64,000 nt of DNA, taken from contig CBDFJF010000002.1 in NCBI GenBank assembly GCA_965248265.1, forward strand, positions 3,552,001-3,616,000, written 5' to 3'. Below the pieces are notes generated by a model. That model worked only from the letters and a program-made list of their open reading frames with translations, searched no databases and had not been told where the DNA came from. This DNA comes from Candidatus Latescibacterota bacterium (lineage in GTDB: Bacteria; Latescibacterota; UBA2968; UBA8231). Made by a program: the position numbers and the translations under genes. Positions 14,008 to 43,445 of the stretch are shown piece by piece. Each line of letters opens with the position of its first letter. The stretch's first letter is position 1.

Positions 14008-14008
14008 G

Positions 14009-16210: not shown

Positions 16211-16212
16211 CG

Positions 16213-17103: not shown

Positions 17104-17156
17104 GTAATCCGGTGTGCCATCGAGGTGTGACGAATCGTGAGATTAGCTGACTGAAG

Positions 17157-18092: not shown

Positions 18093-18116
18093 GGTCCGGG
18101 TGGAAAGCAGATAGAG

Positions 18117-20455: not shown

Positions 20456-20757
20456 ATCATGTAGTTCCGGTAAGGCTGTACTTGACGATCGTGGGGTGCC
20501 TGTTCGTCCTCACTGTGATCACGGTTCTGGCCGCGTTCATCGAGCTGGGCGCTCTGAATACGCCAGTGGCTCTCGGAATCGCCATTCTCAAGGCGACGCT
20601 CGTCGTCCTGTTCTTCATGCACGTCCGCTACAACACCCCGCTGATGTGGGTGTTCGCCGCCGCCGGGTTCTTCATGTTCCTCCTTCTTCTCGTCCTGATG
20701 ATGCAAGACTATATGAGCCGTGATTGGGAGGCGCTTCCAGTGGAGTTCTTGCTCTGA
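20449..20757 (+). CDS. coxD: Cytochrome c oxidase subunit IV (caa3-type)
   Basis: Three TM helices, [16 protein letters not shown]. Confidence 0.88.
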
Positions 20758-20763
20758 CGCGCC

Positions 20764-21492
20764 TCACTTCTTCTTCCTGCTGGGCGGCTTGAGGCCGAAA
20801 TTCACCGTCACCGCACCGTCCGCCACCTCGATCTCCTGTACCTGGTCCGTGAAAAACTCGTGCCACGCCTCAAGGGTGTATTTCCCGGGGGGTACGTTCT
20901 CGATGGCGAAGCTGCCGTCGGCCGCACTCACGGCAAAGAAGGGATGCGGCAGGACGCCGATGTACGCCGTCATCCAGGGGTGTACGTCGCACTTGAAGGG
21001 GACCATGACCTCCGGCTGCGCAAACATGGTGCCCGGCACCGGCAGCTTCCTGATACGGGCTGGCATGGCCTTGTTGAACTCCTCGTTGACCTTGGGCATC
21101 ATGTGCACGTTGTGTAAGAGGCGGTCGCTGTTGAGGATCCTCAGAGGCTGTCCCACCATTAGACCCAGCACCCGCGGCGTGTAGGCGCAGCCGATCTGAT
21201 CCAATTCCCCAGGTCTCTTGGGGGATTCGAACGTCTGCCCCTCCAGGCCGGTCTTTATGTACACGAAGACGTTCTTCACGTTCTTGTCGGCATCGAGAAC
21301 GTAGCGCTCCGACATGTGTGGCTCCGTGTGCTTGGCCACGCAACCGGGATCGGTCTCCATCTTTACCGGCTTCGCCGGAGGGATCTTCTTCGCAACTACC
21401 TTCACCACCCCGCTGATCGTGCCCGACACCACGGGACCGGCCGACAGAGCGATAGCGGCGGCGAGTGCGATTGACAGCTTTCCAACGACCAT
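20764..21492 (-). CDS. Exported cupredoxin-like / carboxypeptidase-regulatory-like domain protein
   Basis: Signal peptide, GTISG, HNVH…CDVHPWM, DGSF.I.NVPPGKY..EAWHE. Confidence 0.85.
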   Translation of the reverse strand: MVVGKLSIALAAAIALSAGPVVSGTISGVVKVVAKKIPPAKPVKMETDPGCVAKHTEPHMSERYVLDADKNVKNVFVYIKTGLEGQTFESPKRPGELDQIGCAYTPRVLGLMVGQPLRILNSDRLLHNVHMMPKVNEEFNKAMPARIRKLPVPGTMFAQPEVMVPFKCDVHPWMTAYIGVLPHPFFAVSAADGSFAIENVPPGKYTLEAWHEFFTDQVQEIEVADGAVTVNFGLKPPSRKKK

Positions 21493-21493
21493 C

Positions 21494-23209
21494 TCATTCT
21501 CCTTCTACAGTTGAGTTTCTGTTGACTAACAATTGACTCCTGCGCCGAAAGCTCCTCCTCGCCGCGAACTGGACGGCGATTGTCAGCAAGGCGCCCACGA
21601 GGCCAAGGAGAATGGGCTTATTGGTGGTGGGCTTCTGCAGAAGCAGGTAGTACCAGGTGGATACCGAGCACCGAGTTCCCGCCTCCCCGTTGGACCCGTC
21701 CCAGGCTGCAAAGGCGATTGGAATGAACGCTCCCACTTCGAGCTGGAGGTCGTTCTTATCCTCCGTCCGCAAAGATCTGTGGATCAATAGCTGGTAGCGG
21801 CCATGCGAATAGGTGATCCTACCACGCACGTCCTGGGTATCAGCCGGTTGCTCCTGGAACCGGGTCATGCCCTTCGCCCTTCCCTCGCTGACTTCCACCG
21901 ACACCCCGCTCGCCTCCGGTGACACAGATGGGCTCGCATGCCAGACCCACGCGTACGCGGCACGTCGCGCATCACCCATGAGGAAGTAGGGACGCACCGC
22001 TCCGTCGGATATCTTGGTGGGAAACTGCACGGCCAGGGCGTCGTCCAGCACCGCCTGCTGCTCTAACACGCCCTGATCTTCGACGGCCGCCTCGCCATTT
22101 GCCTCGTCGGCTGTGGCGATGCTCAGCGAGGGGTCGTGCCAGGTGACGAGAAGCGCCACCTCCTCCCCGTTGTGCATGGACTTGCCGAACACGGCTGTCA
22201 CGGTCGGCGCAAAGAGGCGTGGCTCAATGATCACCTGCCCGGCAAGGGGAAACATTGCGCCCTCCCCTTCCCCCCAGCGCGGGTCATCTGCTCGCTGCGG
22301 CAGCTCCCCTTCCACGAGCGCAGATTCCAGGACGATGGCCACTTCCGGTTTCTGCGCCGGCGACAGCGAACGCACGTAGTTGGCCAGATGCCATGTCTTG
22401 ACGCGTATCTCGCGCATGGCGTCGTCGTACCTCTCCCGTTCCTCAGCAGAGATTTCCTCCTCGTCCTCTATCATGATCTGAATGTCCTCGACCTCCATAT
22501 CCATCGGAAAACTCTCTTTGATCGAGGGCATTGGGGTCCCCGCCAACCCGCCCATGAAGCGCCTGTACAGATCCTCCTCCGCATCCCCGCCCCGAAATCG
22601 CCAGCTCATGGTCAGATCAGCGGGTCGGGTCGGATAATTCCACTCATCCAGCAGGGTCAGAGCCGAAGGACCGTCGCCGCGTCCCTGCTGGCCGTGACAT
22701 TTGGCGCATTCGAGCATCTCGAAGACTCTGCGTCCCTCTGACACGCTTTCCTCAGAACCGGGGACTCTATCCACCAACGCTATCTCCAGCGGCGGGGCAG
22801 TGGCGCGCTCGAAGTGCTTCGCGAAGGTCTTGATGTACGCCACGACCGCGAGTCGCTCCTCGTCGCTGAGTCCGGGCCAGCCCGGCATGGACGTACCCGG
22901 CATGCCGTCGGTGACGATGCGGAGCAGGTCGGCGTCCGTGGGCAGCTCCCGGGACGCGGTGGAACGGATCTTATACAACCCTCGGGTGAAGTCCCGCGGG
23001 CGTGGGTTCAAACGCTCGGCCCCGGAGCCGTCCCCCGCTCCTCCCGCACCGTGACAGTGTGCGCATTTGTTGTCGTATATGGCCTTGCCTGGCCCGATGG
23101 CCCCCACGTTCCCGGCCTGTGCTTGGGCTTGCCCGACAACCCCCGCCCCCAGGGCGCAGGCCATGGCGACCGCAAACAGGGCGAGCTGTTTCGAAACTGG
23201 CATACTCAT
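21494..23209 (-). CDS. Diheme cytochrome c fused to an EbdC/NxrC-like (DMSO reductase type II heme-b) domain, with C-terminal TM anchor
   Basis: CAHCH (PRPRDFT..YK.RST), CAKCH, W.DP…D.LAVQFP…YFLMGD…W.W…AFAAWDG.NGE; ATGA overlap at 23206-23209. Confidence 0.85.
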   Translation of the reverse strand: MSMPVSKQLALFAVAMACALGAGVVGQAQAQAGNVGAIGPGKAIYDNKCAHCHGAGGAGDGSGAERLNPRPRDFTRGLYKIRSTASRELPTDADLLRIVTDGMPGTSMPGWPGLSDEERLAVVAYIKTFAKHFERATAPPLEIALVDRVPGSEESVSEGRRVFEMLECAKCHGQQGRGDGPSALTLLDEWNYPTRPADLTMSWRFRGGDAEEDLYRRFMGGLAGTPMPSIKESFPMDMEVEDIQIMIEDEEEISAEERERYDDAMREIRVKTWHLANYVRSLSPAQKPEVAIVLESALVEGELPQRADDPRWGEGEGAMFPLAGQVIIEPRLFAPTVTAVFGKSMHNGEEVALLVTWHDPSLSIATADEANGEAAVEDQGVLEQQAVLDDALAVQFPTKISDGAVRPYFLMGDARRAAYAWVWHASPSVSPEASGVSVEVSEGRAKGMTRFQEQPADTQDVRGRITYSHGRYQLLIHRSLRTEDKNDLQLEVGAFIPIAFAAWDGSNGEAGTRCSVSTWYYLLLQKPTTNKPILLGLVGALLTIAVQFAARRSFRRRSQLLVNRNSTVEGE

Positions 23210-23964
23210 TCCCATGTCCTCGGAACCTGGCCGGTGGCCTCGTACATGAAGAGGATGACCTGCCAGATCTCCTCCTCCGTGAGCATTTCCTCCCAAGCGG
23301 GCATGGCCGAGCTCCACGGCGCCGAGATCGCGGGCAATCCCGGTCCCCCCTTGCTCACGCGCCAGAACACGAACGATTCCTGGAGCATGGCGAGGGTCCC
23401 GGGATCTGTGAAGTCCGCGGGGGGGGGACTGAAGGCGTGGGCGAACATGCCGTTGCCATCCAGGTCGTCGCCGTGGCAGAAGTGACAGTTCTGATAGTAA
23501 GTGGCCCGTCCCGCCTCCATGTGCCGGTCGTGGTTGCCGCCGTCATGACGCAGCGGGTTCTCCAGGCCGGCCAGGTCGATGTCCCGGCCGCGAAACTGAA
23601 TCGAGGCTGGAGGCGCTGGGTGAACGGTCCTCAGCTCCGCCGGGGGAACGCTGCTGACGGATGAGTTCGTGAACACGACAAAGGCCACCGCCAGAGGCAG
23701 GAAGGTGAAAACGACGATGCGGTGACGGGCTTTGTCTTCGTCGGCCAGCAGCTCCCCGATGGGACGGATGAACTCCCTAAGCCTTTCGTTTTCGACGCCG
23801 ATCTGCGACAGGATCCCGATGATGATGAGACCCATGTACAAGTAGACGATACTCGCCGGCAGCGGCGGCCTGACGCCGTAGGCCAGGCCGACGTAGCACA
23901 CGGCGACCAGGATCACCGCCTTTGAGAAACTCGAAAGCTGCCTCACGGCCTCCTCATTCGGCAC
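23206..23964 (-). CDS. Membrane-anchored monoheme cytochrome c
   Basis: Three N-terminal hydrophobic segments, CHFCH, PADFTDPGT, SAMPAW. Confidence 0.88.
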   Translation of the reverse strand: MPNEEAVRQLSSFSKAVILVAVCYVGLAYGVRPPLPASIVYLYMGLIIIGILSQIGVENERLREFIRPIGELLADEDKARHRIVVFTFLPLAVAFVVFTNSSVSSVPPAELRTVHPAPPASIQFRGRDIDLAGLENPLRHDGGNHDRHMEAGRATYYQNCHFCHGDDLDGNGMFAHAFSPPPADFTDPGTLAMLQESFVFWRVSKGGPGLPAISAPWSSAMPAWEEMLTEEEIWQVILFMYEATGQVPRTWE

Positions 23965-25342
23965 TTTCAGGCACAGAGCCCTTGAGGCTGGCCAGATAGG
24001 CGACCAGGTCGCGAAATTGCCTCACGGTGATGACGTCGTCGAATTTGGGCATTTTGGACTGCACCAGAAGCCTGCGCCCGGCAACGTTGGAGAGATCGCT
24101 CTTGGCGATCGTCAGCGTAGTGTCGGCGCTGCGGATCGTCAGGCTGGCCTCGTCTTCGTGCTCTATTGGGCCGCTCACCTTGTTCTCGCCGTCGCCGACG
24201 ACGGCGCTGATCCAGAAGTAACCCCGATCGGAAATCGACCGCGTATCGGCTATGGGCAGAAGCGCCAGATCGTCACGCTGCACGAGTCGCTCAGCACCCC
24301 CAGAGGCACTTTCGTCAACCGCTACTTCCTCCACCTCCTCCACATCTTCTTCCTCCTCCTCCTCACCCCATCCCCAGTCGTCGTCCTCCGCTTCCTCCAC
24401 CACGTCCAGTTGCAACACCAGCGCATCGCCCTCTTCCCTGACGAGTCTTCCCGCGAGCTCCTCGCCGTTGGCCAGGCTGAGCGTCGTCGATCCGTACCCC
24501 TGAACGATCTTGGCGTTGGGATCTAGGATCGATTCCTCCATGTAGTCCAACGTGTTGAGGGCCCCGATCTCCGTCAATTCGGGACCGACCTCCAGCTGGA
24601 CCTCGGCTGCGCCTACGCGGTGGCATTTGTCGCACTGCAGCTCCTCGACAAAGACCAGTCGACCGGCCTCGGGATCTCCCTGGGCTACCTTCTCGGGGAC
24701 CGCGGCGGCCGCGGTGATATCGATGGGCGGCACGATGGCCGTCAAATCCGGTTCGCCGCCCTGGCTCTGGAGAAAGGCGATCAGCGTTTCGATTTCCAGG
24801 GGGGAGAGGGCGATGGGAGGCTTCCACGCCGGAGGCATTATGTTGCCGTACCCCTTTACCAGATAAGCCTCCGGTAGGTACAGCGCCTCCACCAGATAAT
24901 CCCGGGTCGACGTGTCTTCCTGGCGTCCTCCGCCCGCGATGCCGATATCGCTCAGGTCCGGACAGCGCGGCGTAGTCGCCGACGCTCCGATGACGTGGCA
25001 GGTGGAGCACTTGCCCTTGCCGTAGAAGATCGACTTCCCCGCCGCGACAAAAGCTTCTGGGGTGCGCTCGATGTCACCGACGGCCACGGCGGCGCCGGAG
25101 CTACCCTGGGGGATGAGATTTCCCAGTAGGGCGTAGGACCAGATCACGGCCAGCGCGAAAGTCGCCAGCCGCATCAGATTCTGTTGTAGCGCCATGTTGG
25201 CGCAGATGGCCAGGAAGACCCACACCGACCACGACAGGATGTTCTGGTCAGCCAGGGGAAAAGGCGCAGCTCCCATCAGGAAAGCCCCCAGGCTCAACAG
25301 GAGAAGGGCGAAGATGAGAATCTTTACAGGTGCCCGGTGCAT
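23954..25342 (-). CDS. Membrane-anchored diheme cytochrome c
   Basis: N-terminal TM helices, CSTCH and CDKCH, distal Met motifs IMPP and SKMP; acidic insert. Confidence 0.88.
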   Translation of the reverse strand: MHRAPVKILIFALLLLSLGAFLMGAAPFPLADQNILSWSVWVFLAICANMALQQNLMRLATFALAVIWSYALLGNLIPQGSSGAAVAVGDIERTPEAFVAAGKSIFYGKGKCSTCHVIGASATTPRCPDLSDIGIAGGGRQEDTSTRDYLVEALYLPEAYLVKGYGNIMPPAWKPPIALSPLEIETLIAFLQSQGGEPDLTAIVPPIDITAAAAVPEKVAQGDPEAGRLVFVEELQCDKCHRVGAAEVQLEVGPELTEIGALNTLDYMEESILDPNAKIVQGYGSTTLSLANGEELAGRLVREEGDALVLQLDVVEEAEDDDWGWGEEEEEEDVEEVEEVAVDESASGGAERLVQRDDLALLPIADTRSISDRGYFWISAVVGDGENKVSGPIEHEDEASLTIRSADTTLTIAKSDLSNVAGRRLLVQSKMPKFDDVITVRQFRDLVAYLASLKGSVPESAE

Positions 25343-25359
25343 GGATTTCGTCTCCGCCC

Positions 25360-27087
25360 TCAGTTGGCAGCTTCCTCTTTCTTATCGCCCAACGATCCGA
25401 GCCAGAAGATGAAGCAGATCAAGGCGCCGAAAACGATGACGATGGCGGCGATGATGTTGGACGCGTCACCCACGGTCGGGGTGAAGGCATCTGGTGATGT
25501 GTCCCTCATGACGCCGTATATGTGCCAGTCCTCCCGGATGCCCGACCGCACGTACCCCATGAGTCCCATCATGGCGCAGAATGTGACAGCCAGCAATATG
25601 AGGATGTACTGAGACTGGTCCGTCATCTTACCCCACTGCACTTCGCCGGTGGATGAGGCCCGTCGATAGAGGATGACATCGAGGACGGTCACCGAGAACA
25701 GGACCGCCAGAACGACTACCACCTGTCCAGGGGTCAGGACGTTCACCCGCTCCAGACTGGGCACGTAGTACCCCATAACGCCAAGAACGACCACGATGGC
25801 GGCGGCGGCGGCGAAGATGGTGAACACCACGACGTTGACGGGTTTGGACCACCTCAATGTCGGGGTTTTGCCGGATCTGCGGTAAAAGAGAAAGGTCAGG
25901 AACGTGGTGAGGATGATGAGGTTTACGGCCGTGTTCTTGGCCGACATAACTCCGAAGACTCCCACGAGCGGATGGTGTTCACCGCCGATGGCCGCCTTCT
26001 CCACCGGGCTCAGGATCAGGGTCCTGGGAGTTGCCCACACGGCAATGCAGGCGATGAGGACCGCGAATACGAAAGGTCGGTACCGGCTGTATCGCTCGGC
26101 GCCTTTGATGCGGCCCATCCCCGACCACAGGTAGAAGTTCACGCCCAGGAAGAGTACGCCGATCATGGCCGCCTGAATGATGAACAGCCAGGAGAACAGG
26201 CTGCCCATCATGTTGATGCCCATGGTCTGGTTGAACTCGTAGATCTCCTTGGCGAGCCAGTACCCGGCAAAGGGCAGGGGGATGAGGGCGCAGACGGCGA
26301 TAAAGTTTCCGGTGTACCCCATCCAGTCGTAGTGGGCTTTGTCCGATTCGCTCGTGGCCGTGAGGAATCGGACCGCCGCGTAGGCAGCCACGACGGCTCC
26401 CCCGAAGGCGATGTTGGCGATGAAGCGATGTATGTTGATCGGCATCCAGGTGAAGTTGTAAACCGCATCCCCAAGACTGATCAGAGCTCCCTGCTCATCT
26501 ATTCCTGCCGGGCTGGTCATGAAGGTGAGCCAGGAATTGGCCACGCACATGATCGCCGTACCGAAGACGTTGAGTAGCACGCCGAAGGTCAGGTGCAGCC
26601 ACTTCCGGTTCATCAGCCGGTCCCACGTGTACCAATACAGATAGAGGCTGAAGGTCTCTCCGAAGAAGAGCGCCACGTAGAGGACGTACGTGGGCGTGAA
26701 AATATTGGTCATGTAGCCAAAGAAGCGGGGATAGAACCCGATCATCAGAAACAGCAGCACGGCACCGAACATGGCCGTGGTGGAAAACGCCACGAGACAC
26801 AGCTTGATGAACTCGCGGGCCATGCGGTCGTAGCGCGGGTCGCCGGTGCGCACACCGACGAACTCGATGATGAGGGCAAAGAGTGGGACACCGAGGATGA
26901 AGGCGGCGAACATGAGGTGGAGCTGGGCCGCAACCCAGACCGCGACCCGGCTGCCTACCACGGGGAATTCTCGGTACTCTGGGATGTCGGAGAAGGCGCC
27001 CTGGGACCAGGCCGGTGTGCTCGTGAAGAGAAGTATCAGACCGAAGGAGATGGCCGTCAGTGGCGGTGAACTGTGGCCCTCTGGCAT
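25360..27087 (-). CDS. Cytochrome bd-like oxidoreductase subunit I (CydA superfamily, no CydB partner)
   Basis: AQLHLMFAAF.LG.P, FF.E, ANSWLTFMTSP.G, NIHR and GY.RS..R..W motifs; polytopic membrane protein; ATG at 27087 preferred. Confidence 0.85.
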   Translation of the reverse strand: MPEGHSSPPLTAISFGLILLFTSTPAWSQGAFSDIPEYREFPVVGSRVAVWVAAQLHLMFAAFILGVPLFALIIEFVGVRTGDPRYDRMAREFIKLCLVAFSTTAMFGAVLLFLMIGFYPRFFGYMTNIFTPTYVLYVALFFGETFSLYLYWYTWDRLMNRKWLHLTFGVLLNVFGTAIMCVANSWLTFMTSPAGIDEQGALISLGDAVYNFTWMPINIHRFIANIAFGGAVVAAYAAVRFLTATSESDKAHYDWMGYTGNFIAVCALIPLPFAGYWLAKEIYEFNQTMGINMMGSLFSWLFIIQAAMIGVLFLGVNFYLWSGMGRIKGAERYSRYRPFVFAVLIACIAVWATPRTLILSPVEKAAIGGEHHPLVGVFGVMSAKNTAVNLIILTTFLTFLFYRRSGKTPTLRWSKPVNVVVFTIFAAAAAIVVVLGVMGYYVPSLERVNVLTPGQVVVVLAVLFSVTVLDVILYRRASSTGEVQWGKMTDQSQYILILLAVTFCAMMGLMGYVRSGIREDWHIYGVMRDTSPDAFTPTVGDASNIIAAIVIVFGALICFIFWLGSLGDKKEEAAN

Positions 27088-27543
27088 GCATTTGCCTTGC
27101 GTACGGCAGGGAGCTAATTGGCGGGTCAAAGTTGTTCGAATTCTCCTGCCTTCTTGTGGCCTCGCTTGAAACTGGCCAACCTGTTGAGCAAGGTCCACTA
27201 CATGCAGATGGCAGCTGTCGACCGACAGAGCTGGTGATCGTCAGCTGGATACTCTCAGTCCAGCCGCTGACCCAGATACGCTATAGCAAGTGGTTGCAAA
27301 TAGCAAGTGGTCACAAGGAATTGAGACGATTTCGTCCCACATCGTCGTCGCCATGACTGCCCCACTCCATACGGACACATGTGGAGGGCGTCGGCCTGCC
27401 AGCGCCGCGTTTGACTGCGCCGCACTATACCGTATATCCTGCCTAACCGTCAATCAAGAAAAAGCGGATTGAGCGGGGGAACGGTTTGTGTTGAGGCGAA
27501 TTGGAGACAAAACTGAAAGTGAAAACTAGCATTCGTCTTTTAT

Positions 27544-28091: not shown

Positions 28092-28105
28092 GGAGAAGGC
28101 GAGGC

Positions 28106-28624: not shown

Positions 28625-28703
28625 CTTGTATTGAGACTATTCGATGATAGACTCGGAGTATACCAGCAGGCCACTGCAGCCTCGCTGAGCCGGCGATCCG
28701 TCT

Positions 28704-29219: not shown

Positions 29220-29241
29220 TGTATCAGAGTATCAGAAAAAA

Positions 29242-30464: not shown

Positions 30465-31700
30465 ATGGTTTCCCATAACGAGTACCGCCCGTCCCTGATC
30501 TCCTGGAACCTCACGAAGATGTGCAACCTGCGGTGTCCGCACTGTTACCTAGACGCCGGCAAGAAAGAGGAGGATGAGCTCACCACCAATGAGTGCTTTG
30601 CGCTTATTGACGAGATGAAGGTATTGGGAACGGAAATGCTCATTCTTACCGGTGGGGAGCCACTATTGCGAAAGGATATCTATGATATCGCAAAGTATGC
30701 TTCCGAGCGGGGCATTTGGGTTGTTATGGGCACAAACGGCGTTTTAGTTACTGACAAAGTTGTGCAGAAAATGTTGGAATGTGGCGTAAAAGGCGTGGGC
30801 ATCAGCATTGATTCAGTGGATCCCGAGAAGCACGATGGATTTCGCGGGGGTCCCAAATCATGGGAATATTCGGTTCGGGCGTTGGAAATCTCTCGAGCCT
30901 ACGGTTTGGAAGTCCTGGTTCAAACGACGATCATGGAAACCAATTACGACGAGATTCCCCAACTGATTGACTTTGCCAGAGAGAAGGGAGCCTGGTCCTT
31001 CAACCTCTATTTTCTGGTGCAGACAGGCCGCGGCCAGGAAATGAACGATCTATCTCCACAGCAGACCGAGGCGATGCTCACGAACCTGGTTGAGTTACAG
31101 AACGAGTATCGACCCATGCTGGTGCGCTCCAAATGTGCACCGCACTTCAAACGCATTGCCTTTGAGAGAGCACTGGGGGGTCTAGAGAGCGGGGGGTGCA
31201 TGGCAGGCACTCAATATGGGCGGATTACACCTGAAGGAAATGTGACGCCATGCCCGTACATGACGGTCGTTGCAGGCAACATTAGAGAAAACAGACTCAC
31301 AGAAATCTGGCAGACTGCTCCAGTTTTTCAGGAATTAAGGAATCTGAACCAACTGAAAGGCCGCTGTGGAGGCTGTGAGTTTAAGGAGTTGTGTGGCGGC
31401 TGTCGCTGTCGGGCCTACGCTGCTTATGGCGACTATTTGCAGGAAGATCCGGCCTGTACATATCAACCATCCGGCCAGCCATTACAATTCGAAACAATCA
31501 CTTGGAATGCCGAGGCCAAGTCTCGTCTCGGGCGCATCCCTATTGCCTTTATTCGTGAGAAGGTTAAGAAGGGAGTGGAGACCTATGCGCAGCGTATTGG
31601 GGCTCGTGTCATCACCGCAGAATTGATGAAGATGGCTACGGCCGGCATGGAACGGCCGGCGACTTTCAATAAATTAAGAGAAAGTGAACATCACGAATGA
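30465..31700 (+). CDS. Radical SAM/SPASM protein (AhbD/NirJ-like) with C-terminal PCP_red-like domain
   Basis: CNLRCPHC, TGGEPLLR, SPASM cysteines (GCMAG, PCPY, CGGCEFKELCGGCRCRA, DPAC); tail WNAEAKSRLGRIP. Confidence 0.9.
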   Translation: MVSHNEYRPSLISWNLTKMCNLRCPHCYLDAGKKEEDELTTNECFALIDEMKVLGTEMLILTGGEPLLRKDIYDIAKYASERGIWVVMGTNGVLVTDKVVQKMLECGVKGVGISIDSVDPEKHDGFRGGPKSWEYSVRALEISRAYGLEVLVQTTIMETNYDEIPQLIDFAREKGAWSFNLYFLVQTGRGQEMNDLSPQQTEAMLTNLVELQNEYRPMLVRSKCAPHFKRIAFERALGGLESGGCMAGTQYGRITPEGNVTPCPYMTVVAGNIRENRLTEIWQTAPVFQELRNLNQLKGRCGGCEFKELCGGCRCRAYAAYGDYLQEDPACTYQPSGQPLQFETITWNAEAKSRLGRIPIAFIREKVKKGVETYAQRIGARVITAELMKMATAGMERPATFNKLRESEHHE

Positions 31701-31803
31701 CTCATCTAAGCAGAATTCATGATTGAATTAGATACAGCCGCGTTGACGAAACATGTCCATGTGTCAAACGGCGTAGCCCATCTGAGGCAGGACGACACCA
31801 TTC

Positions 31804-32256
31804 GTGAATTCGCAATTTGATCATCTTGTAGACCCCATGCAGCTCAGCAACCCGAAACCCCATTGGAACGAACTCGAATTTCTTAGCTGGAAAGAATTCA
31901 AGCAGATGGCGCCCTCTATCATCCAGCTGGAAATATCCCGCATCGGAGACATAGTCAATGCCCCGGCTACGGACATCGACTTGTGCAACGTGTTCGTGAA
32001 GGTCCGGTTCGAGTTGAGAAAATTTCAGGAGTGTCTGCAGCAGACAAACAGGCCCCCGCTGAAAGATCCTTGTGTTGCACATCTTCGGACTGCGATCATA
32101 TGTCTTTCCATTCAAAATCAAATACAGGACAAAAAGACGGCGACAACAGTGAAGTACGTTTTTGATAGATTGAACTCCCTGCTGAAGAGGACCGATCTGA
32201 TATTCCAAAACACCACTGATATTCCGCCCATGCAGCACCCATCCGGAGGCCAATAA
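31804..32256 (+). CDS. Hypothetical protein (start may be ATG 31837)
   Basis: ORF whose stop directly abuts the start of the USP gene. Confidence 0.65.
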   Translation: MNSQFDHLVDPMQLSNPKPHWNELEFLSWKEFKQMAPSIIQLEISRIGDIVNAPATDIDLCNVFVKVRFELRKFQECLQQTNRPPLKDPCVAHLRTAIICLSIQNQIQDKKTATTVKYVFDRLNSLLKRTDLIFQNTTDIPPMQHPSGGQ

Positions 32257-34206
32257 ATGTTCGAAAAGATCTACGTCCCTCTTGATAACTCTGACCACTC
32301 GATGACGAGCGCTGAGCTGGCGATCGATCTGGCGAAGAGATTCGGCTCAGAGCTGGTGGGCTGCCATGCCTATGCTGCGAGGATGCACGACATCCGATTC
32401 AGGCAAATGGAGTTTACGCTGCCTTCAGAATACCAGGTGGAAGAAGAGATGGAGAAGCAGCGAAACATCCACGACACGTTGATCACGATGGGATTAGAGC
32501 TCATTTCGGATTCCTATTTGGAGGTCATGAAAAAGAGATGCGAGAGCGAGAAGCTTCCCTTCGAACAGAAGATGATGGACGGCAAAAACTTTAAGGTCCT
32601 TGTCGATGACATCAACAACAGCGATTACGACCTGGTAATCCTGGGTGCGCTGGGGCTTGGCGCGGTGCGGGATAGTATGATCGGCAGCGTCTGTGAAAGG
32701 GTGGTTAGAAGAACCAAGACCGATACACTCGTGATCAAGAACACTTCTCCCCTCGAAGATCAACTCAGTGCAAACGGCAATGGCGAGGTCAAGCATGAAC
32801 TTGGCAATGGAGGCAAGATCGTTGTCTGCGTCGACGGCAGCCCTGAGTCCTTTGCCGGGCTTCGAACGGCCATCTCCCTCGGGAGGGCTGTAAACAAAGA
32901 AGTGGAGGCCATCGCCGTTTACGATCCCTACCTGCACTATACCATGTTCAACAGCATCGTGAATGTCTTAACCGACAAGGCATCAAAAGTTTTCAAATTC
33001 AAAGAACAAGAACAGCTGCACGAAGATGTGATCGACACGGGCCTGGCACAGATATATCACTCCCACCTGGAGGTGGCGCGAAAGATCGCCAAGGAAGACG
33101 ACATCGACTTGAAGATAACTCTTCTCGATGGTAAGGCCTTTGAGAAGATTATCCAATATGTCAGACGAGAGAGACCATGGCTCCTGGTCATAGGACGGAT
33201 TGGTGTGCACAGCGATGAGGATATGGATGTTGGCAGCAATAGCGAAAATCTTCTTCGCTTGGCGCCCTGCAACGTTTTTCTCTCCAGCAAGAGATTTATC
33301 CCGGCCATCGATGTTCAGGCGGAAGAATCGATGACCTGGACCGAAACGGCTACCGCACTGTTGAATACCGCTCCGGAAGCGGTCAGGGGCATTGCCCGCA
33401 CGACCATACACAGGTGGGCCATGGAACGGGGGCATTCGGTCATAACGAGGAAAGTGATCGAGAAATCAATGGCTAGCATATTGCCGGAAAAAGCGATGAG
33501 GGCCATGGGGATCATCGCCGAGGAAGTCGCCATAGAAAAAGGAAATCTACTGGAGTCAGAGACCTATGTCTGTCGTGAGTGCGGCTATGCCGCCCGCGAC
33601 GTGGACCCGGTGGTCTGCCCGGTCTGCAATGGACCGGCAGAAGGATTCCAGAAGATCGACAAACAGGCAATTGAGAATCTGGCACCGCTGGAAGGAGACA
33701 TCGAAGAAGAAAAGACCTTCGACAACTTGAAATTGAAATGGACCAGCGAAGCAAAACAAGCTTTACACGGTGTGCCATCTGGCTACCAGAGAAGAAGGGC
33801 GAGAGCGCAAATCGAAAAGAGCGTCAGGGTGCGCAAGCTTCCGGCCATCACCAGGGAGCTGGTTTTTGAGGTTGCCGGGGACATTATCGAAGAGACCAAA
33901 AACCTGGAAGAGCGCGGCCGACTAAAGAAGGAGATGGTTTCCAGCACAGAAAGTGTTTTGGAGCAACACGCCATTCAGGATGGCAAATTTCGATGGAGCG
34001 CTTCCGCCGTGGCTAGGCTGAATCGCGTCCCTGAAGGATTCATGCGTGATCAGACAAAGGATCGAATCATAAATTGCGCCGAAAAGAAATCTGTGGACCT
34101 GGTAACCTTGGAAATCGCCGAGGAGGGGATTGCGGAAAGCCGGAACATCATGGCGGAGACGATAAAAAGGGACAGCAAAGATAAAGGTGAATCCCCCAAC
34201 AAATAA
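32257..34206 (+). CDS. Tandem universal-stress-protein domains plus rubredoxin-like site and three PCP_red-like domains
   Basis: KIYVPLDNS…LVILGALGLG…IGSVCERVV; KIVVCVDGS…GSNSENLLR; CRECG…CPVC; three W-x2-(E/x)A-x3-L-x3-P repeats. Confidence 0.88.
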   Translation: MFEKIYVPLDNSDHSMTSAELAIDLAKRFGSELVGCHAYAARMHDIRFRQMEFTLPSEYQVEEEMEKQRNIHDTLITMGLELISDSYLEVMKKRCESEKLPFEQKMMDGKNFKVLVDDINNSDYDLVILGALGLGAVRDSMIGSVCERVVRRTKTDTLVIKNTSPLEDQLSANGNGEVKHELGNGGKIVVCVDGSPESFAGLRTAISLGRAVNKEVEAIAVYDPYLHYTMFNSIVNVLTDKASKVFKFKEQEQLHEDVIDTGLAQIYHSHLEVARKIAKEDDIDLKITLLDGKAFEKIIQYVRRERPWLLVIGRIGVHSDEDMDVGSNSENLLRLAPCNVFLSSKRFIPAIDVQAEESMTWTETATALLNTAPEAVRGIARTTIHRWAMERGHSVITRKVIEKSMASILPEKAMRAMGIIAEEVAIEKGNLLESETYVCRECGYAARDVDPVVCPVCNGPAEGFQKIDKQAIENLAPLEGDIEEEKTFDNLKLKWTSEAKQALHGVPSGYQRRRARAQIEKSVRVRKLPAITRELVFEVAGDIIEETKNLEERGRLKKEMVSSTESVLEQHAIQDGKFRWSASAVARLNRVPEGFMRDQTKDRIINCAEKKSVDLVTLEIAEEGIAESRNIMAETIKRDSKDKGESPNK

Positions 34207-34240
34207 TGAAGGCTCCAATCCGCTCTCTCTGCGTTAGAAA

Positions 34241-35128
34241 ATGAAAACCTACAAAGACATAGCCGGCGATGGCGGATCGAATATTGTCGAGCAGGTCACC
34301 GCGCAGCAACACCGCGTGCAGTCGAGGATGGCCTCCGTGCGCCATATTGTTGCCGTTATGAGCGGCAAGGGCGGAGTCGGAAAGAGCTCAGTTGTCGTAA
34401 ATCTTGCCTCGGCCTTCGCGCTTGAGGATTACTCCGTGGGAATATTGGATGCCGATATCAACGGTTCCTCTATACCAAAGATGACCGGTGTTCGCGGACG
34501 GCCGCTGGAGACCGGTGAAACCGGAATAATGCCCATGGCGGCCGCTCGTAATCTCAAGGTCATGTCGATTGATCTGTTTTTGCCTGATGACAGCACCCCG
34601 GTTATTTGGGACGCTCCCACGCAGAAGGACGCTTACACCTGGCGCGGCATGATGGAGACGGCGGCAATCCGGGAATTCCTGTCCGACACGGAATGGGGCG
34701 AGTTGGATTTCTTATTCATTGACTTGCCGCCAGGAACAGACAAACTGCCAAATATGTTAGACCTGCTCCCGCAAATTTCGGGTACCATCATTGTGACGAT
34801 CCCATCAGAACTGTCCCAGTTCGTTGTCGGTAAGTCAATCACAATGGCGAAGGAATTGCTTCAGACACCGGTAATCGGCTTGGTCGAGAATATGTCGGCA
34901 CATATTTGCAGTCGATGTGGCCATGAGGAGGAATTGTTTCCGGGAAGAATCGTCGAGGGGCTGGCGGAACAACATGATGTGCCGTATCTGGGCAGGATTC
35001 CGTTCGACCCGAGAATGGCTGTTTGTGCTGATGAAGGTTTGCTCTATATGGAAGAGCACGGCGACTTACCGGCTACCAATGCGATAGGGCAAATTGCTCA
35101 AAGGGTAGGTGAGTTTTTGAAACAATAG
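34241..35128 (+). CDS. Mrp/NBP35 (ApbC-like) P-loop ATPase, Fe-S carrier family
   Basis: SGKGGVGKS, LDADING.SIP, WGELDFLFIDLPPGT, GLVENMS..ICSRCG. Confidence 0.92.
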   Translation: MKTYKDIAGDGGSNIVEQVTAQQHRVQSRMASVRHIVAVMSGKGGVGKSSVVVNLASAFALEDYSVGILDADINGSSIPKMTGVRGRPLETGETGIMPMAAARNLKVMSIDLFLPDDSTPVIWDAPTQKDAYTWRGMMETAAIREFLSDTEWGELDFLFIDLPPGTDKLPNMLDLLPQISGTIIVTIPSELSQFVVGKSITMAKELLQTPVIGLVENMSAHICSRCGHEEELFPGRIVEGLAEQHDVPYLGRIPFDPRMAVCADEGLLYMEEHGDLPATNAIGQIAQRVGEFLKQ

Positions 35129-35218
35129 AACGCGGATGACACAGATTTACGCTGATTGTCGCGGATGAAATGCCAGACATCGAATCCGCGTAGATCCGTA
35201 TGACCTGTGTAATCCGTG
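35129..35218. repeat. REP-like imperfect long hairpin built from (C)GCGGAT/ATCCGC(G)-type units
   Basis: CGCGGAT 35160-35166 pairs with ATCCGCG 35184-35190; the outer arms carry further degenerate complementary units. Confidence 0.6.
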
Positions 35219-35236
35219 CTATTATGAACGGAGTAA

Positions 35237-35746
35237 ATGATGAAATTCTTATGCGTGGAATGTGACGAGCCCATGAAGCTGAAGGACACCAAAGGCCCCG
35301 ATAACGGCTCCATGACGGTTGTCTTCGCTTGCCCCAAATGCGAACGGCAAATCGCCATGCTGACCAACCAAATGGAAACGCAAATGGTTCGCTCGCTTGA
35401 TGTGAAGCTTGGTGGAGGCCCAACTCTGGCAGAGCCCATGGGGACCCTTAGGAGTTCTTTGGCCCAAAAAAGCGACGATGTAGTCACATCATCGATTCAT
35501 TCTCATCAGGAAACAGACCAAAAGGAGTCAGGTTCCAAATGTCCGTTTACCGGTGCTGTTGCCGATGCCTTCGAAACCTCTGGCGAAATCGTCTGGACCC
35601 AGGAGGCCGAGGAACGTCTTAGCAGAATCCCACCATTTGCCAGATCCATGGCCAAGCAGGGAATTGAACGGCACGCCCGCGAAAGGGGATATAAAAAAAT
35701 AAGTGATGCGGTGATGGAGGAAGTGAGGGATCAGTTCGCAATGTGA
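35237..35746 (+). CDS. Small CxxC…CxxC metal-binding protein with C-terminal PCP_red-like domain
   Basis: CVEC…CPKC, KCPF, WTQEAEERLSRIPPFAR. Confidence 0.85.
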   Translation: MMKFLCVECDEPMKLKDTKGPDNGSMTVVFACPKCERQIAMLTNQMETQMVRSLDVKLGGGPTLAEPMGTLRSSLAQKSDDVVTSSIHSHQETDQKESGSKCPFTGAVADAFETSGEIVWTQEAEERLSRIPPFARSMAKQGIERHARERGYKKISDAVMEEVRDQFAM

Positions 35747-35821
35747 AGGTCAGTTGGCATTGCAGCAGTCGCCCGAGGAGCCTGAATCTGGAGCGGTCTA
35801 ATCAACTGAACTGTACGGCAG

Positions 35822-36382
35822 TTGCCGATGTCATCCTCTAGAACGATACATCTGACCCCGAAGCAGTTTGGCGCCACCAATGCCATCGTGACGCTCACTG
35901 CGATGAGCTTCCTCGTCTGGTTGATCTACTTCCACGAGGGGAATGACAGCGCTTCGCAGGGCGCCCAGCTACCCCTGATCAACGCGATCCTGAACGGCAC
36001 CAGCGCGGTGTTGATCTCGGTGGGGCTGTGGGCGATCAAGCAGCGTAAGCGCACACTGCACATGCAGCTGATGCTCGCTGCGTTCGCGTCGTCGGCGCTG
36101 TTTCTGGTGAACTACATCTACTACCATTTTTCTCACGGGGATACACACTTCGCGGGGCAGGGTATCATCCGGCCCATCTACTTCACGGTGCTCATCAGCC
36201 ACATTCTGCTATCTATGGTGACCTTCCCGATGATCTTGACGTCATTGTATCTGGGACTGAGCAATCGTCTGGTAACCCATCGCCGCCTATCCAAGTGGAC
36301 GTGGGTGGGGTGGATGTATGTCTCGGTCACGGGAATTGTGATCTATTTCATGCTCCACGTGATCGGCTGGGAGTTGAGCTGA
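35822..36382 (+). CDS. DUF420 (CtaM/YozB-like) membrane protein, oxidase assembly associated
   Basis: LP.INAILN, H…M..A…S.LFL..Y, Y..L.SHI.L, HRR…W.YVSVTG…Y. Confidence 0.88.
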   Translation: MPMSSSRTIHLTPKQFGATNAIVTLTAMSFLVWLIYFHEGNDSASQGAQLPLINAILNGTSAVLISVGLWAIKQRKRTLHMQLMLAAFASSALFLVNYIYYHFSHGDTHFAGQGIIRPIYFTVLISHILLSMVTFPMILTSLYLGLSNRLVTHRRLSKWTWVGWMYVSVTGIVIYFMLHVIGWELS

Positions 36383-42713: not shown

Positions 42714-43445
42714 ATGAAACTGATCAGACACCCACTCACAGCTGTGGCGATGATGGCATTGGTCGTGGCCCTTTCCGGCATGGTCCGAGCGCAGGCGTCC
42801 AGCGCAGGAGGGTCAATTAGCGGCGCGGTCAAGTACGATGGCGAGGCGGCGGCGGCGAAAAAGCTGGCGGTTACTAAGGATGTGAAGGTTTGCGACGTGC
42901 ACGAGAAATTCTCTGAGGACCTAGTTGTCTCTAGCGCGGGTGGTATCCAAAATGTCTTCGTGCAGGTGCTCGGGGCGAAGGGTGAAGTCACAATTCCCAA
43001 GGAGCGACCCGCTCTCGTCCAAAAGGGATGTCAGTTCATTCCCCATGTGCAGGTCATCCCTGCCGGTTCGAGAGTGAACATCATGAATGATGATGGCATC
43101 GCCCACAATCTCCATACGCTCAGCGTGGAGAATCCGTCCTTCAATCGACTGCAACCCGGCATCAAGAAGAGGATGATTACCCGAAAAAACGATCTGCTAA
43201 TTCCGGAGATCATACCGATCAAGTGCGATCTTCACGGCTGGATGAAGGCGTGGATCATCGTCGCCGATCACCCCTATCACGCCATATCCGATCAGGAGGG
43301 TTCATTTCAGATTACCGGTATCCCGCCGGGGACGTACACGGTTCAGTTCTGGCACGAAACACTGGGGCAACTGTCGCGGGAAGTGACCGTGGAGACCGGG
43401 GCCGATACAAAGGTCGGTGATGTAGCGTTCAAGGCCGCAATGTAA
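42714..43445 (+). CDS. Exported cupredoxin-like / carboxypeptidase-regulatory-like domain protein (paralog of 20764-21492)
   Basis: Signal peptide, GSISG, HNLH…CDLHGWM, GSF.I.GIPPGTY..FWHE. Confidence 0.85.
   Translation: MKLIRHPLTAVAMMALVVALSGMVRAQASSAGGSISGAVKYDGEAAAAKKLAVTKDVKVCDVHEKFSEDLVVSSAGGIQNVFVQVLGAKGEVTIPKERPALVQKGCQFIPHVQVIPAGSRVNIMNDDGIAHNLHTLSVENPSFNRLQPGIKKRMITRKNDLLIPEIIPIKCDLHGWMKAWIIVADHPYHAISDQEGSFQITGIPPGTYTVQFWHETLGQLSREVTVETGADTKVGDVAFKAAM

Follow-up and report, generated by a model that had tools for sequence, protein, structure and literature searches.

A five-gene operon on the minus strand of the 64-kb stretch of DNA analysed here (the window) raises the question of what a cytochrome bd-like membrane protein does when its gene lies beside cytochrome c genes and not beside cydB. 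A sequence-only reading had interpreted the products as a cytochrome c-linked membrane oxidoreductase, and this interpretation gained support from the residue alignment, the cytochrome partners, and the orthologues in Nitrospira and Nitrospina. The bd-like family is known from nitrite oxidisers and stands here in a non-nitrifying bacterium. We put at about even the chance that the operon encodes a haem-only cytochrome c/cupredoxin:O2 oxidoreductase building proton-motive force by charge separation.

The operon and its neighbourhood

The first gene encodes a CydA-like (bd-like, OR-N-type) membrane subunit of 575 aa (25360..27087), recognised by Pfam, AF2, Foldseek and hhalign. This length is counted from an ATG; since the frame stays open to a GTG at 27198, the true start may lie up to 37 codons further upstream. 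There follow a membrane-anchored dihaem cytochrome c of 462 aa (23954..25342), a membrane-anchored monohaem cytochrome c of 252 aa (23206..23964), a 571-aa protein joining a dihaem cytochrome c to an EB_dh (EbdC/NxrC-like) beta-sandwich and a C-terminal membrane anchor (21494..23209; frame open to 23317), and a secreted type-1 copper cupredoxin with a CarboxypepD_reg-like beta-sandwich (242 aa; 20764..21492). The tight coupling claimed for these ORFs is borne out by their junctions, which are, in operon order, a 17-nt gap, overlaps of 11 and 4 nt, and a 1-nt gap. A promoter-like site upstream of the operon on the same strand (27424..27453; 10/12 consensus matches) is weak evidence; the scan of the region found 5 sites against 2.0 expected.

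The order of the first four genes was identical in 57/57 related loci long enough to judge, so the operon is not a chance arrangement, and the dihaem cytochrome c gene directly follows the bd-like gene in all 57. The related loci were found in Latescibacterota (93% identical), Poribacteria, Acidobacteriota, Rhodothermales, Nitrospinota, Nitrospirota and others, and the bd-like family matched at least 603 genome stretches from many aerobic heterotroph phyla. The likeness to Nitrospira and Nitrospina held as well: both phyla carry orthologues 47-53% identical, with the three cytochrome genes in the same order, and the literature describes the module there. The operon is a typical member of this family already described in nitrite-oxidising bacteria. 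In three relatives (P0121, P0126 and P0130), the bd-like protein carries one or two cytochrome c domains in a natural fusion; together with the conserved cytochrome gene order, these fusions suggest that the operon products would form one membrane complex.

Exactly five CxxCH motifs (2+1+2) were counted in the operon and none in the CydA-like protein, in agreement with the five c-haems read earlier. The 462-aa protein (Pfam Cytochrom_C, 2.2e-12; NCBIfam TIGR02603, 6.4e-24) has three N-terminal hydrophobic helices by hydropathy, the motifs CSTCH and CDKCH, and an acidic insertion within the second haem domain. The 252-aa protein, besides its conserved position, is marked by Pfam Cytochrome_CBB3 (3.5e-09), three hydrophobic helices and the motif CHFCH, and 75/76 of its orthologues have one CxxCH. 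In the 571-aa protein, Pfam detected Cytochrom_C (9.6e-20) and EB_dh (4.1e-12), and two CxxCH occur in 69/69 orthologues. It matched NCBIfam TIGR03477 at 4.6e-24, under the model's own cut-off; PDB searches matched residues 40-234 to 6h5l_B (1.6e-48) and gave EbdC 2ivf_C at 1e-4. The EbdC-like domain proposed from the letters was thus recovered as a fold, but the haem ligands of EbdC, which we take to be Met108 and Lys201, are not kept across the family: Met stands in the first column in 7/70 rows and Lys in the second in 0/70, where Arg (44), Met (12), His (6) and Cys (2) occur. Judged from these columns, haem binding by the domain is doubtful. Its counterpart in the literature is called 'alternative NxrC' or 'periplasmic cytochrome b'.

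In the 242-aa protein, the cupredoxin domain escaped every Pfam cupredoxin model. Its AF2 model (pLDDT 91.2) matched amicyanin, pseudoazurin and plastocyanin in Foldseek (TM 0.55-0.74), and the ligand set His127/Cys168/His171/Met174 was invariant in 34/34 relatives, sustaining the earlier assignment. The gene lies 3' of the operon in only 16/56 loci and is a lineage-specific addition outside the conserved core. A paralogue on the plus strand (42714..43445; BLASTP, 34% identity, E 3e-39) stands, by its Pfam context, at the 3' end of the second haem-copper oxidase operon (36913-42195).

The operon adjoins genes for alternative complex III (ACIII), Sco and caa3, as do its relatives in Rhodothermales and some Acidobacteriota loci. 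Consistent with the heterotrophic-type region described earlier, Pfam identified in the window sugar and amino-acid metabolism genes, a complete ACIII 5 kb from the operon, and two haem-copper oxidases; it found no nitrite oxidoreductase (NXR) and no nitrogen-oxide or chlorate metabolism genes in the 64 kb. A plus-strand set at 30465..36382 (NirJ2/AhbD-like radical SAM-SPASM-PCP_red, Usp+PCP_red, Mrp/NUBPL, a small PCP_red protein and DUF420; Pfam and NCBIfam) possibly belongs with the operon. Among 43 loci of at least 19 kb, 18-24 have members of this set no more than 10 kb from the bd-like gene (DUF420 in only 2), and in locus L009 members directly follow the operon on the same strand.

Retained and replaced residues of the CydA-like subunit

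Pfam Cyt_bd_oxida_I (PF01654) matches the CydA-like protein at 2.2e-19, limited to the N-terminal part. The AF2 model (pLDDT 89.7) has 13 TM helices and an N-terminal helix, all of its top 10 Foldseek matches in the PDB are CydA, and the family profile aligned with eight canonical CydA proteins in hhalign (Prob 98.6, E 8e-16). The motifs quoted earlier, AQLH (H57), NIHR (H220), FFGE (E144) and GYVRSGIREDW (511-521), were all found. The profile alignment to the E. coli CydA sites, whose roles follow a preprint (10.1101/2021.01.16.426971), confirmed the likely haem His residues and the E107-like Glu: over 93 family rows, H57 (H19) and E144 (E107) are each kept in 90, H220 (H186) in 91, and H165 (H126) in 93. 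E75 is invariant (93/93). R518 equates with R448 (92/93) and W521 with W451 (91/93) in weaker alignments.

Other canonical residues are replaced. The K252 and E257 columns hold Gly290 and Gly295, each Gly in 90/93 rows, in accord with the claimed absence of the quinol-binding K…E motif, and the AF2 model and alignment place four helices (residues 296-438) where the Q-loop stands. E99 falls on Tyr137 (Tyr in 90/93). GYVRSGIREDW indeed replaces GWxxxExGRQPW, with Ser515 at the E445 position (87/93) in weaker but repeatable alignments. The M393 position is without Met (Gly in 52, Asn in 20 of 93 rows). The C-terminal alignment to canonical CydA is weak (Prob 16-37%), and the last three helices probably share ancestry with canonical TM7-9. 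Met381, on an inserted helix and Met in 88/93 rows, is a candidate M393 replacement, nothing more. A basic-acidic pair at 280-281 was rejected as a Q-loop remnant, aligning with non-conserved Y243-E244.

Possible electron route and competing functions

As an O2 oxidoreductase, the complex would comprise a 13-helix CydA-like core without CydB and three membrane-anchored periplasmic cytochromes carrying five c-haems, with the secreted blue-copper protein joining the donors in this lineage. Electrons would pass from the neighbouring ACIII or other periplasmic donors to the c-haems, directly or via the cupredoxin, then to a predicted low-spin haem on His220 (H186 position) and on to a high-spin haem on His57 (H19 position) near the periplasmic face. 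O2 would be reduced at the latter with cytoplasmic protons arriving via Glu75, Glu144 (E107) and His165 (H126). Reduction at a periplasmic-side haem with cytoplasmic protons would thereby generate proton-motive force through charge separation in the manner of cytochrome bd, the donor being cytochrome c or a copper protein, not quinol.

The fold, the kept residues at the haem and proton-path positions, the lost quinol-site residues and the helices in the Q-loop place speak for this reading. The adjoining ACIII, Sco and caa3 genes suit an oxidase setting, as does the paralogous cupredoxin that closes a true haem-copper oxidase operon. In N. moscoviensis and Ca. Manganitrophus the module is reported to rank with the most strongly expressed gene sets (PMC6606698; 10.1101/2021.11.15.468770), and in Ca. 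Nitromaricola it is the sole candidate for a terminal oxidase (PMC13768755). Against an O2 oxidase count the two missing di-haem-site carboxylates (E99 and E445), the M393 position without Met in the weakly aligned C-terminal part, an EB_dh domain without conserved EbdC-type haem ligands, the two haem-copper oxidases already in the window, and a module of this kind within the NXR cluster of Kuenenia, a strict anaerobe (PMC3578206). In nitrite oxidisers, the module is described as biochemically uncharacterised (PMC3578206, PMC6606698, PMC13768755), and by the account of PMC13768755 and PMC12342949 no bd-like family member has yet been assayed.

A quinone-linked role also fits the Acidobacteriota loci, where 14/16 loci with both flanks have an ActB-like gene immediately 5' of the bd-like gene, as part of an ActA/ActB-like arm without NrfD-type subunits. 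In L009 the gene order is ActA-like, ActB-like, monohaem c, bd-like, c, c, c2-EB_dh, without NrfD-type ActC/ActF. The enzyme might accordingly be no terminal reductase but an ACIII-like quinol:cytochrome c or cytochrome c:quinone oxidoreductase on a bd scaffold, with the CydA-like subunit as the quinone-interacting membrane part. Lucker et al. 2013 proposed such a role for the module of Nitrospina, Kuenenia and Nitrospira, a module also present in anaerobic anammox bacteria (PMC3578206), Mundinger et al. 2019 tied it to reverse electron flow (PMC6606698), and the loss of E99 and E445 from the O2 site agrees with it. We consider it unlikely: the only known quinol site, K252/E257, is Gly, no other quinone site is recognisable, and the pair at 280-281 is no remnant of one; E75, E144 and H165 (90-93/93) form a conserved path connecting the cytoplasmic side with the His57 haem, of the kind that a proton-consuming catalytic haem requires; and the window already holds a complete ACIII.

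We see only a slim chance for a cytochrome c-dependent reductase of NO, nitrite, peroxide or chlorite at the His57 haem, serving detoxification or anaerobic respiration. Tyr137 and Ser515 make the active site unlike that of O2-reducing bd, the 571-aa protein's dihaem domain is close to PDB 6H5L chain B, an entry that a preprint cites as a Kuenenia HAO structure, nitrogen-cycle organisms, anammox bacteria among them, carry the module (PMC3578206), and canonical bd enzymes are credited with NO and O2 detoxification (PMC10839748). However, the window lacks nitrogen-oxide and chlorate metabolism genes, the genes nearby serve aerobic respiration, the family reaches across many phyla of aerobic heterotrophs, and the sequence points to no particular alternative substrate.

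The absence of cydB claimed earlier extends to the window, where Pfam matched neither Cyt_bd_oxida_II nor a molybdopterin family among 52 flanking ORFs and the five operon proteins, and tblastn with E. coli CydB gave no match; its best match in 80 related loci had E = 2.1. Whereas cydB lay immediately downstream of all eight canonical cydA genes fetched, it was absent from all 80 loci and from the window. E. coli CydA fell outside the family, set apart by a branch of 9.3 changes per column, and the NCBIfam equivalog model gave 25 bits where its cut-off is 968. Although relatives bear the public name 'cytochrome ubiquinol oxidase subunit I' and the Pfam match is genuine, these results, with K252, E257, E99 and E445 replaced and four helices in place of an intact Q-loop, contradict an ordinary quinol-oxidising subunit I with cydB elsewhere in the genome, to which we attach next to no credence.

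Comparison with known systems

The operon subunit has the CydA fold of canonical cytochrome bd (CydAB/CydX; qOR families) and retains equivalents of H19, E107, H126, H186, R448 and W451, but it differs in lacking CydB, the Q-loop, K252/E257 and E99 (Gly and Tyr), E445 (Ser) and a Met at M393, and its partners are cytochromes c. The OR-C family, with haem c fused to CydA, likewise lacks the quinol site and has cytochrome c as presumed donor (10.1101/2021.01.16.426971). OR-C subunit I, however, has CxxCH motifs and about 8 helices, whereas CxxCH occurs in 0/93 members of the present family, the model has 13 helices, and the few relatives fused to cytochrome c have the long form with the haem domains appended at the C-terminus.

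ACIII (ActABCDEF) shares membrane-anchored multihaem and monohaem c subunits with the operon; an ActA/ActB-like pair is co-oriented with it in Acidobacteriota, and in Nitrospirales ACIII is followed by OR-N5 bd-like genes (PMC12342949). Unlike ACIII, the operon has a CydA-like membrane core and neither an NrfD-type nor an Fe-S subunit. The 571-aa protein shares its EB_dh fold with the EbdC/NxrC-type gamma subunits of type II DMSO reductases, but here the fold shares one polypeptide with a dihaem cytochrome c and a membrane anchor, and no molybdoenzyme alpha or beta subunits are encoded in the vicinity. The cupredoxin has the fold and His...Cys-x2-His-x2-Met ligands of amicyanin, pseudoazurin and plastocyanin, to which it adds an N-terminal strand region with a conserved Cys pair and the C-terminal beta-sandwich.

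Judged by its genes and their order, the operon is the known 'bd-like oxidase + two cytochromes c + alternative NxrC' module (OR-N type; TO_1), the OR-N label following the defining features in the Murali et al. preprint (10.1101/2021.01.16.426971) rather than a tree with labelled references. The OR-N-type clusters of Nitrospira, Nitrospina and Ca. Manganitrophus ('TO_1') have the same four genes in the same order, namely bd-like, mono- and dihaem cytochromes c and alternative NxrC; their subunit I also has about 14 predicted helices without quinol-site residues or CxxCH, and cupredoxin-like genes are reported there too (PMC3578206). Two Nitrospira clusters, NIDE0901-like or alt_NxrC_2, are eligible as the orthologue. 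In contrast to these clusters, the host here is a Latescibacterota-like heterotroph whose 64-kb window contains no NXR, a single bd-like gene replaces the two of Nitrospira loci, the cupredoxin gene follows 1 nt after the fourth operon gene, and the operon adjoins ACIII and caa3.

The operon and its relatives

The sequence-only reading had described a tightly coupled five-gene operon without cydB, and both observations were confirmed. Five open reading frames lie head to tail on the minus strand, coding for a CydA-like protein (protein 1; 25360-27087, 575 aa, frame open to a GTG at 27198), a dihaem cytochrome c (protein 2; 23954-25342, 462 aa), a monohaem cytochrome c (protein 3; 23206-23964, 252 aa), a dihaem cytochrome c with an EB_dh domain (protein 4; 21494-23209, 571 aa, frame open to 23317) and a cupredoxin (protein 5; 20764-21492, 242 aa). 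From 5' to 3', the first two genes are separated by 17 nt, the second overlaps the third by 11 nt and the third the fourth by 4 nt, and 1 nt lies between the fourth and the fifth. Proteins 2, 3 and 4 contain two, one and two CxxCH motifs, and three, three and one hydrophobic anchor helices, respectively, the one of protein 4 being C-terminal. No cydB was detected in the window by Pfam or tblastn searches, nor in the 80 related loci described next.

Protein 1 belongs to a large family, with 7130 relatives at E <=1e-3 among 8000 candidates scored, and matches to 1281 clusters of a 50%-identity library (209 below 1e-30). A genome scan covering one genome per species, with a 9-row alignment of closer relatives as the query, matched at least 608 stretches, and at least 603 were confirmed; the best 80 were kept. 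The closest locus among these 80 (L001, 93% identity) comes from a Candidatus Latescibacterota MAG, and its 21.7 kb are syntenic with the window, gene for gene. In the remainder of the best 80, protein 1 is 56-65% identical to its counterparts in Poribacteria, 53-61% in Acidobacteriota, 52-56% in Myxococcota, Gemmatimonadota and Rhodothermales, 52-53% in Nitrospinota, 48-51% in Pseudomonadota and 47-49% in Nitrospirota. In quick IQ-TREE searches with SH-aLRT as the only support measure, the window grouped first with L001 and L002 (support 100 and 99), and 14 Poribacteria joined this group next (99). The phylum labels required 12 changes on the tree, the minimum being 11, and E. coli CydA fell outside the family, its branch measuring 9.3 changes per column.

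Each of the 57 loci that extend 5.5 kb or more downstream, including those from Nitrospirota and Nitrospinota, has the order dihaem c, monohaem c, dihaem-c/EB_dh. The 2+1+2 distribution of CxxCH motifs prevails in most phyla, while Acidobacteriota mostly have 1+1+2. Subunit I itself is devoid of CxxCH in the window protein and in all 93 orthologous ORFs. Among the cluster representatives there are putative natural fusions of a bd-like protein to C-terminal cytochrome c domains, two domains in P0121 (889 aa) and one each in P0126 and P0130. The conserved gene order together with these putative fusions supports the prediction that the proteins of the operon form a single complex.

Two complete, adjoining bd-like + c + c + c2-EB_dh operons were seen in Myxococcota and several Pseudomonadota (L016, L059, L060, L061, L067 and L072), where the second copies form a well-supported clade of their own. 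Another variant operon, in the Acidobacteriota locus L009 (5466-14782) and 13 further loci of this phylum, encodes an ActA-like multihaem cytochrome c, an ActB-like protein (1041 aa), a monohaem c, the bd-like protein, c, c and c2-EB_dh, without NrfD-type ActC/ActF. Of the 16 Acidobacteriota loci with both flanks, 14 have an ActB-like gene immediately before the bd-like one.

Residues of the CydA-like protein

The Pfam model Cyt_bd_oxida_I matched protein 1 (2.2e-19) over the first ~250 residues only, and the NCBI equivalog model for ubiquinol oxidase subunit I scored 25 bits against a cut-off of 968. We modeled the protein by AlphaFold2 from 93 aligned rows (pLDDT 89.7, pTM 0.89), comprising the window, 83 of the 94 bd-like ORFs of the 80 loci and nine distant cluster representatives; fragments, ORFs outside 540-740 aa and four near-duplicates were left out. 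The model has 13 long helices in addition to an N-terminal hydrophobic helix at residues 12-22. CydA chains make up its ten best matches in the PDB (E 1e-10 to 1.6e-6, target-normalised TM 0.50-0.59), and CydB appeared first at rank 15 with an E-value of 0.03.

As the canonical reference, we used E. coli cydA and seven diverse plasmid-borne cydA genes, each of which was followed directly by cydB in the loci fetched (8/8). H19, E99, E107, H186, K252, R391, M393, W441, E445, R448 and W451 are invariant in these eight proteins. Profile-profile alignment with the family was strong over window residues 46-344 (Prob 98.6, E 8e-16). In this part, H19 corresponds to H57 (His in 90 of the 93 rows), E107 to E144 (kept in 90), H126 to H165 (93/93) and H186 to H220 (91 rows). 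E99 is replaced by Y137, and K252 and E257 by G290 and G295, with Tyr, Gly and Gly each found in 90 rows. The C-terminal halves aligned weakly (Prob 16-37%, E 3.5e-4 to 1.6e-3), in a register that was repeated in all three local hhalign runs and in three of the four PDB alignments shown. In these weak alignments, R391 falls on R447 (80/93 rows), R448 on R518 (92/93) and W451 on W521 (91/93); M393 falls on N449 with Prob 16-37%, in a column with 52 Gly and 20 Asn among the 93 rows; and E445 of the GRQPW motif, which we take to be the haem b595 ligand, falls repeatedly on S515 (87/93). Further conserved residues of protein 1 are E75 (all 93 rows), K384 and H522 (91 each), H372 (90) and M381 (88), the last of which sits on an inserted helix.

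The sequence-only reading had noticed likely haem His residues, an E107-like Glu and the absence of a quinol-binding Q-loop motif. The alignment to E. coli CydA upholds this view, as H19, E107 and H186 are kept and K252, E257, E99 and E445 replaced; the K252/E257 positions hold Gly290 and Gly295, and four helices (296-438) occupy the place of the periplasmic Q-loop in the AlphaFold2 model. With the residue roles for E. coli CydA stated in the preprint by Murali, Gennis and Hemp (10.1101/2021.01.16.426971), protein 1 keeps His19, which ligates the active-site haem, His186, which in canonical CydA forms the ligand pair of haem b558 with Met393, and the proton path through E107 and H126. The quinol residues are lost, and so are both carboxylates of the canonical di-haem site. 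Two other assignments were rejected. The equation of M381 with M393 came from an insignificant hhalign run (Prob <1%) in which the C-terminal half was compared with E. coli CydA as the sole reference, and the profile-profile runs put the canonical TM7-9 on helices 444-574 instead. The basic-acidic pair at 280-281 (basic in 72 and Glu in 84 of 93 rows), considered as a remnant of K252/E257, aligns with Y243-E244.

Partner proteins and gene neighborhood

The dihaem part of protein 4 (residues 40-234) matches chain B of PDB 6H5L (1.6e-48), a Kuenenia HAO structure according to a 2026 preprint that cites it. The EB_dh domain was identified by Pfam above the cut-off (PF09459, 4.1e-12), and TIGR03477 matched protein 4 at 4.6e-24 with 84.9 bits, below its cut-off of 169.85. 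The axial haem ligands of EbdC are presumably Met108 and Lys201. In an alignment of 70 family rows, a few of which are frameshifted or translated through a stop, the Met108 column contains Met in seven rows, and the Lys201 column contains Arg in 44, Met in 12, His in six, Cys in two and Lys in none; Lys occurs one column earlier in 33 rows. The window protein has Met411 and Arg513-Cys514 at these columns, and the L001 protein, 82% identical to it, has Arg-Arg at 513-514. Nitrospira proteins have Lys-Met; in Acidobacteriota the first site is Phe and the second Arg-Arg. Judged from these columns, the haem ligands of the EB_dh domain are doubtful. The window contains no molybdopterin enzyme except the ActB of its alternative complex III (ACIII), and no molybdopterin alpha or Fe-S beta partner subunits for the EB_dh protein.

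The cupredoxin nature of protein 5 was revealed by its fold alone, as Pfam and PDB sequence searches found no cupredoxin in it and its sole Pfam match is a C-terminal CarboxypepD_reg-like domain. The AlphaFold2 model (pLDDT 91.2) matches amicyanin, pseudoazurin and plastocyanin, and His127, Cys168, His171 and Met174 are invariant in 34 of 34 relatives. On the basis of this ligand set and the modeled fold, protein 5 is a type-1 copper protein. Downstream of the operon, a cupredoxin gene is present in 16 of 56 loci, namely all 12 Poribacteria loci as well as Latescibacterota, Gemmatimonadota and Myxococcota loci, and in none of the 17 Acidobacteriota, eight Nitrospirota and six Rhodothermota loci. 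We discarded the assignment of protein 5 to the convergent caa3 oxidase operon, because its gene is on the opposite strand and starts 1 nt after that of protein 4. Relatives of protein 5 do adjoin cox genes in other loci (L043, L050 and L053). Within the window, a paralogue with 34% identity to protein 5, the same copper ligands and the same cupredoxin/CarboxypepD_reg architecture (42714-43445, plus strand) closes a second haem-copper oxidase operon (36913-42195, plus strand) made up of COX2 without a cytochrome c domain, COX1, ctaB and two COX3 genes. The proximity of cupredoxin and cox genes in the window and in these three loci suggests that the copper protein could be a shared electron carrier for terminal oxidases.

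According to Pfam, a complete ACIII (8376-15801) and Sco plus caa3 genes (16213-20757), the latter convergent on the bd-like operon, lie on one side of it. On the other side, a CopD-like membrane protein (27591-28091; PF05425, 6.7e-11) is encoded divergently. Three small proteins without a known family (172, 171 and 120 aa) are encoded beside the CopD-like gene (27591-29604 for the group); all four are conserved in L001, and the 172- and 120-aa proteins also occur near radical SAM and cupredoxin genes in the Rhodothermales locus L056. Pentapeptide-repeat proteins (PF00805) are found in the flanks at 6633-7379 (minus strand, 4.9e-44) and 44818-45651 (minus strand, 2.7e-45), unrelated to the operon.

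An accessory set follows on the plus strand (30465-36382), coding for a radical SAM-SPASM protein with PCP_red, a Usp+PCP_red protein, an Mrp/NUBPL Fe-S carrier, a small PCP_red protein and a DUF420 protein. The radical SAM protein is NirJ2/AhbD-like (TIGR04055, 1e-104, 350 bits, below the cut-off of 500), and PCP_red is also known as the C-terminal domain of BchB, a subunit of protochlorophyllide reductase. The set and the second haem-copper oxidase operon are contained in a block (28000-44000) with a GC content of 0.49-0.53, compared with 0.55-0.64 on either side. The part of this block covered by L001 (28106-31700) is syntenic there, so the block is no recent insertion specific to this genome. 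Of the 43 loci of at least 19 kb, 18 have a radical SAM gene near the bd-like gene, 24 have Usp-PCP_red, 20 Mrp, 22 small PCP_red and two DUF420; set members occur in at least five phyla and in none of the 12 Poribacteria loci. In L009, the set (14775-20544) directly follows the operon on the same strand, and in the Nitrospira locus L077 (2000-3286) DUF420 and small PCP_red genes stand beside the bd-like genes. The accessory set may serve to supply or modify haem; alternatively, it may act for the haem-copper oxidases. It could be a dedicated system modifying and inserting haem for an active site lacking both carboxylates. That the bd-like complex uses a purpose-built tetrapyrrole instead of ordinary haem b or haem d is a speculative and rather improbable idea; if true, the enzymes of the OR-N family would represent haem-only cytochrome c oxidases of a chemically novel type.

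Possible reaction and kinship with known bd-like modules

We give about even chances to the complex being a cytochrome c/cupredoxin:O2 oxidoreductase with charge separation. Electrons would arrive from cytochrome c/cupredoxin, O2 would be the acceptor, and energy would be conserved by charge separation. This reaction is favored by the retained His57 haem ligand, His220 and fully conserved acidic/His path E75/E144/H165, by the missing quinol site, by the presence of five c-haems in the periplasm and an oxidase-type neighborhood, and by organisms in the literature that have the module as their only oxidase candidate. Counting against it are the replacement of E99 and E445, an M393 position that holds no Met, an EB_dh domain in which the EbdC ligands are not conserved, the presence of the module in anammox bacteria and, upstream of the bd-like gene in 14 of 16 Acidobacteriota loci, the ActA/ActB-like arm that lacks NrfD-type subunits. 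This arm would also fit the main rival, an ACIII-like quinone-coupled complex, which we regard as unlikely given the missing quinol residues. Less likely still is a reductase for another oxidant, to which the anammox occurrence and the altered di-haem site could be fitted, and against which the oxidase-type neighborhood would count. A canonical quinol oxidase, the reaction implied by the public label "cytochrome ubiquinol oxidase subunit I" on named relatives of protein 1, is excluded for practical purposes by the replaced quinol residues. The residue analysis contradicts this name, so metabolic reconstructions that assume a quinol bd oxidase are likely wrong. The view that this is a cytochrome c-linked bd-like membrane oxidoreductase, put forward in the sequence-only reading, is supported by the residue map, the partner proteins and the absence of nitrite oxidoreductase (NXR) genes from the window.

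Two papers (PMC6606698; PMC13768755) treat bd-like (OR-N) complexes as the presumed main terminal oxidases of the dominant nitrite oxidisers, with a reaction, an oxygen affinity and a subunit make-up unsettled since 2010. Here, the same four-gene core occurs in a Latescibacterota-like heterotroph beside ACIII and caa3 and without NXR. Its presence there, together with the at least 603 genome stretches from many phyla matched in the scan, suggests a general respiratory role, and argues against a nitrite-specific "NXR anchor". The wide occurrence also offers many non-nitrifier sources for biochemical work. The value of the present locus lies in the module outside nitrifiers, the residue map, the doubtful EB_dh haem ligands and the recurrent radical SAM/PCP_red neighbors rather than in a new type of system. 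Our literature searches found no paper on a Poribacteria "bd-like oxidase" and, from 2021, no cryo-EM paper on a bd-like haem protein; for Latescibacter and cytochrome bd, no paper on the module was among the matches listed.

The module itself has been described before. In Lucker et al. (2013; PMC3578206), a conserved set in Nitrospina, Kuenenia and Nitrospira comprises one mono- and one dihaem cytochrome c together with cupredoxin-like proteins, an alternative NxrC and a bd-like protein of 14 helices with haem b ligands kept, no quinol residues and an "enigmatic" function. Mundinger et al. (2019; PMC6606698) report that two clusters of this kind are among the most transcribed genes of N. moscoviensis, and Yu et al. 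(10.1101/2021.11.15.468770) place the module, named TO_1, in the 98th expression percentile of Ca. Manganitrophus. Papers from 2024-2026 still call it biochemically uncharacterised (PMC10839748; PMC12342949; PMC13768755). The family was named OR-N by Murali et al., whose preprint assigns 14 helices to OR-N1 and OR-N2 and often no second cydA-like gene to OR-N2.

We assign protein 1 to OR-N by these defining features (14-helix type, OR-N1/OR-N2) rather than by a labelled reference tree; in our own tree, taken as a proxy, the Nitrospirota and Nitrospinota orthologues lie inside the family and E. coli CydA outside. As in OR-N, the quinol-binding residues are absent, the 13 long helices and the N-terminal hydrophobic helix match the ~14 helices of that family, the three cytochrome c genes match its alternative-donor operons, and the single bd-like gene is as often seen in OR-N2. 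The lack of a haem c motif separates the protein from OR-C, which has CxxCH within subunit I. Protein 4 resembles the EbdC/NxrC-type gamma subunits in fold and does not share their full Met/Lys ligand pair. Nitrospira loci such as L077 contain bd-like, c, c and c2-EB_dh genes plus a second bd-like copy. Either of two Nitrospira clusters, that of NIDE0901 or that of alt_NxrC_2, may be the orthologous one; no complex III or NXR genes were detected by Pfam within 10 kb in the flanks of L077 and a further related locus, L040. The proposed likeness to the Nitrospira and Nitrospina bd-like clusters is borne out by orthologous loci with the same gene order, and the window operon, sharing gene content and order with the "bd-like + two cytochromes c + alternative NxrC" module (TO_1), is by sequence a member of this known module.
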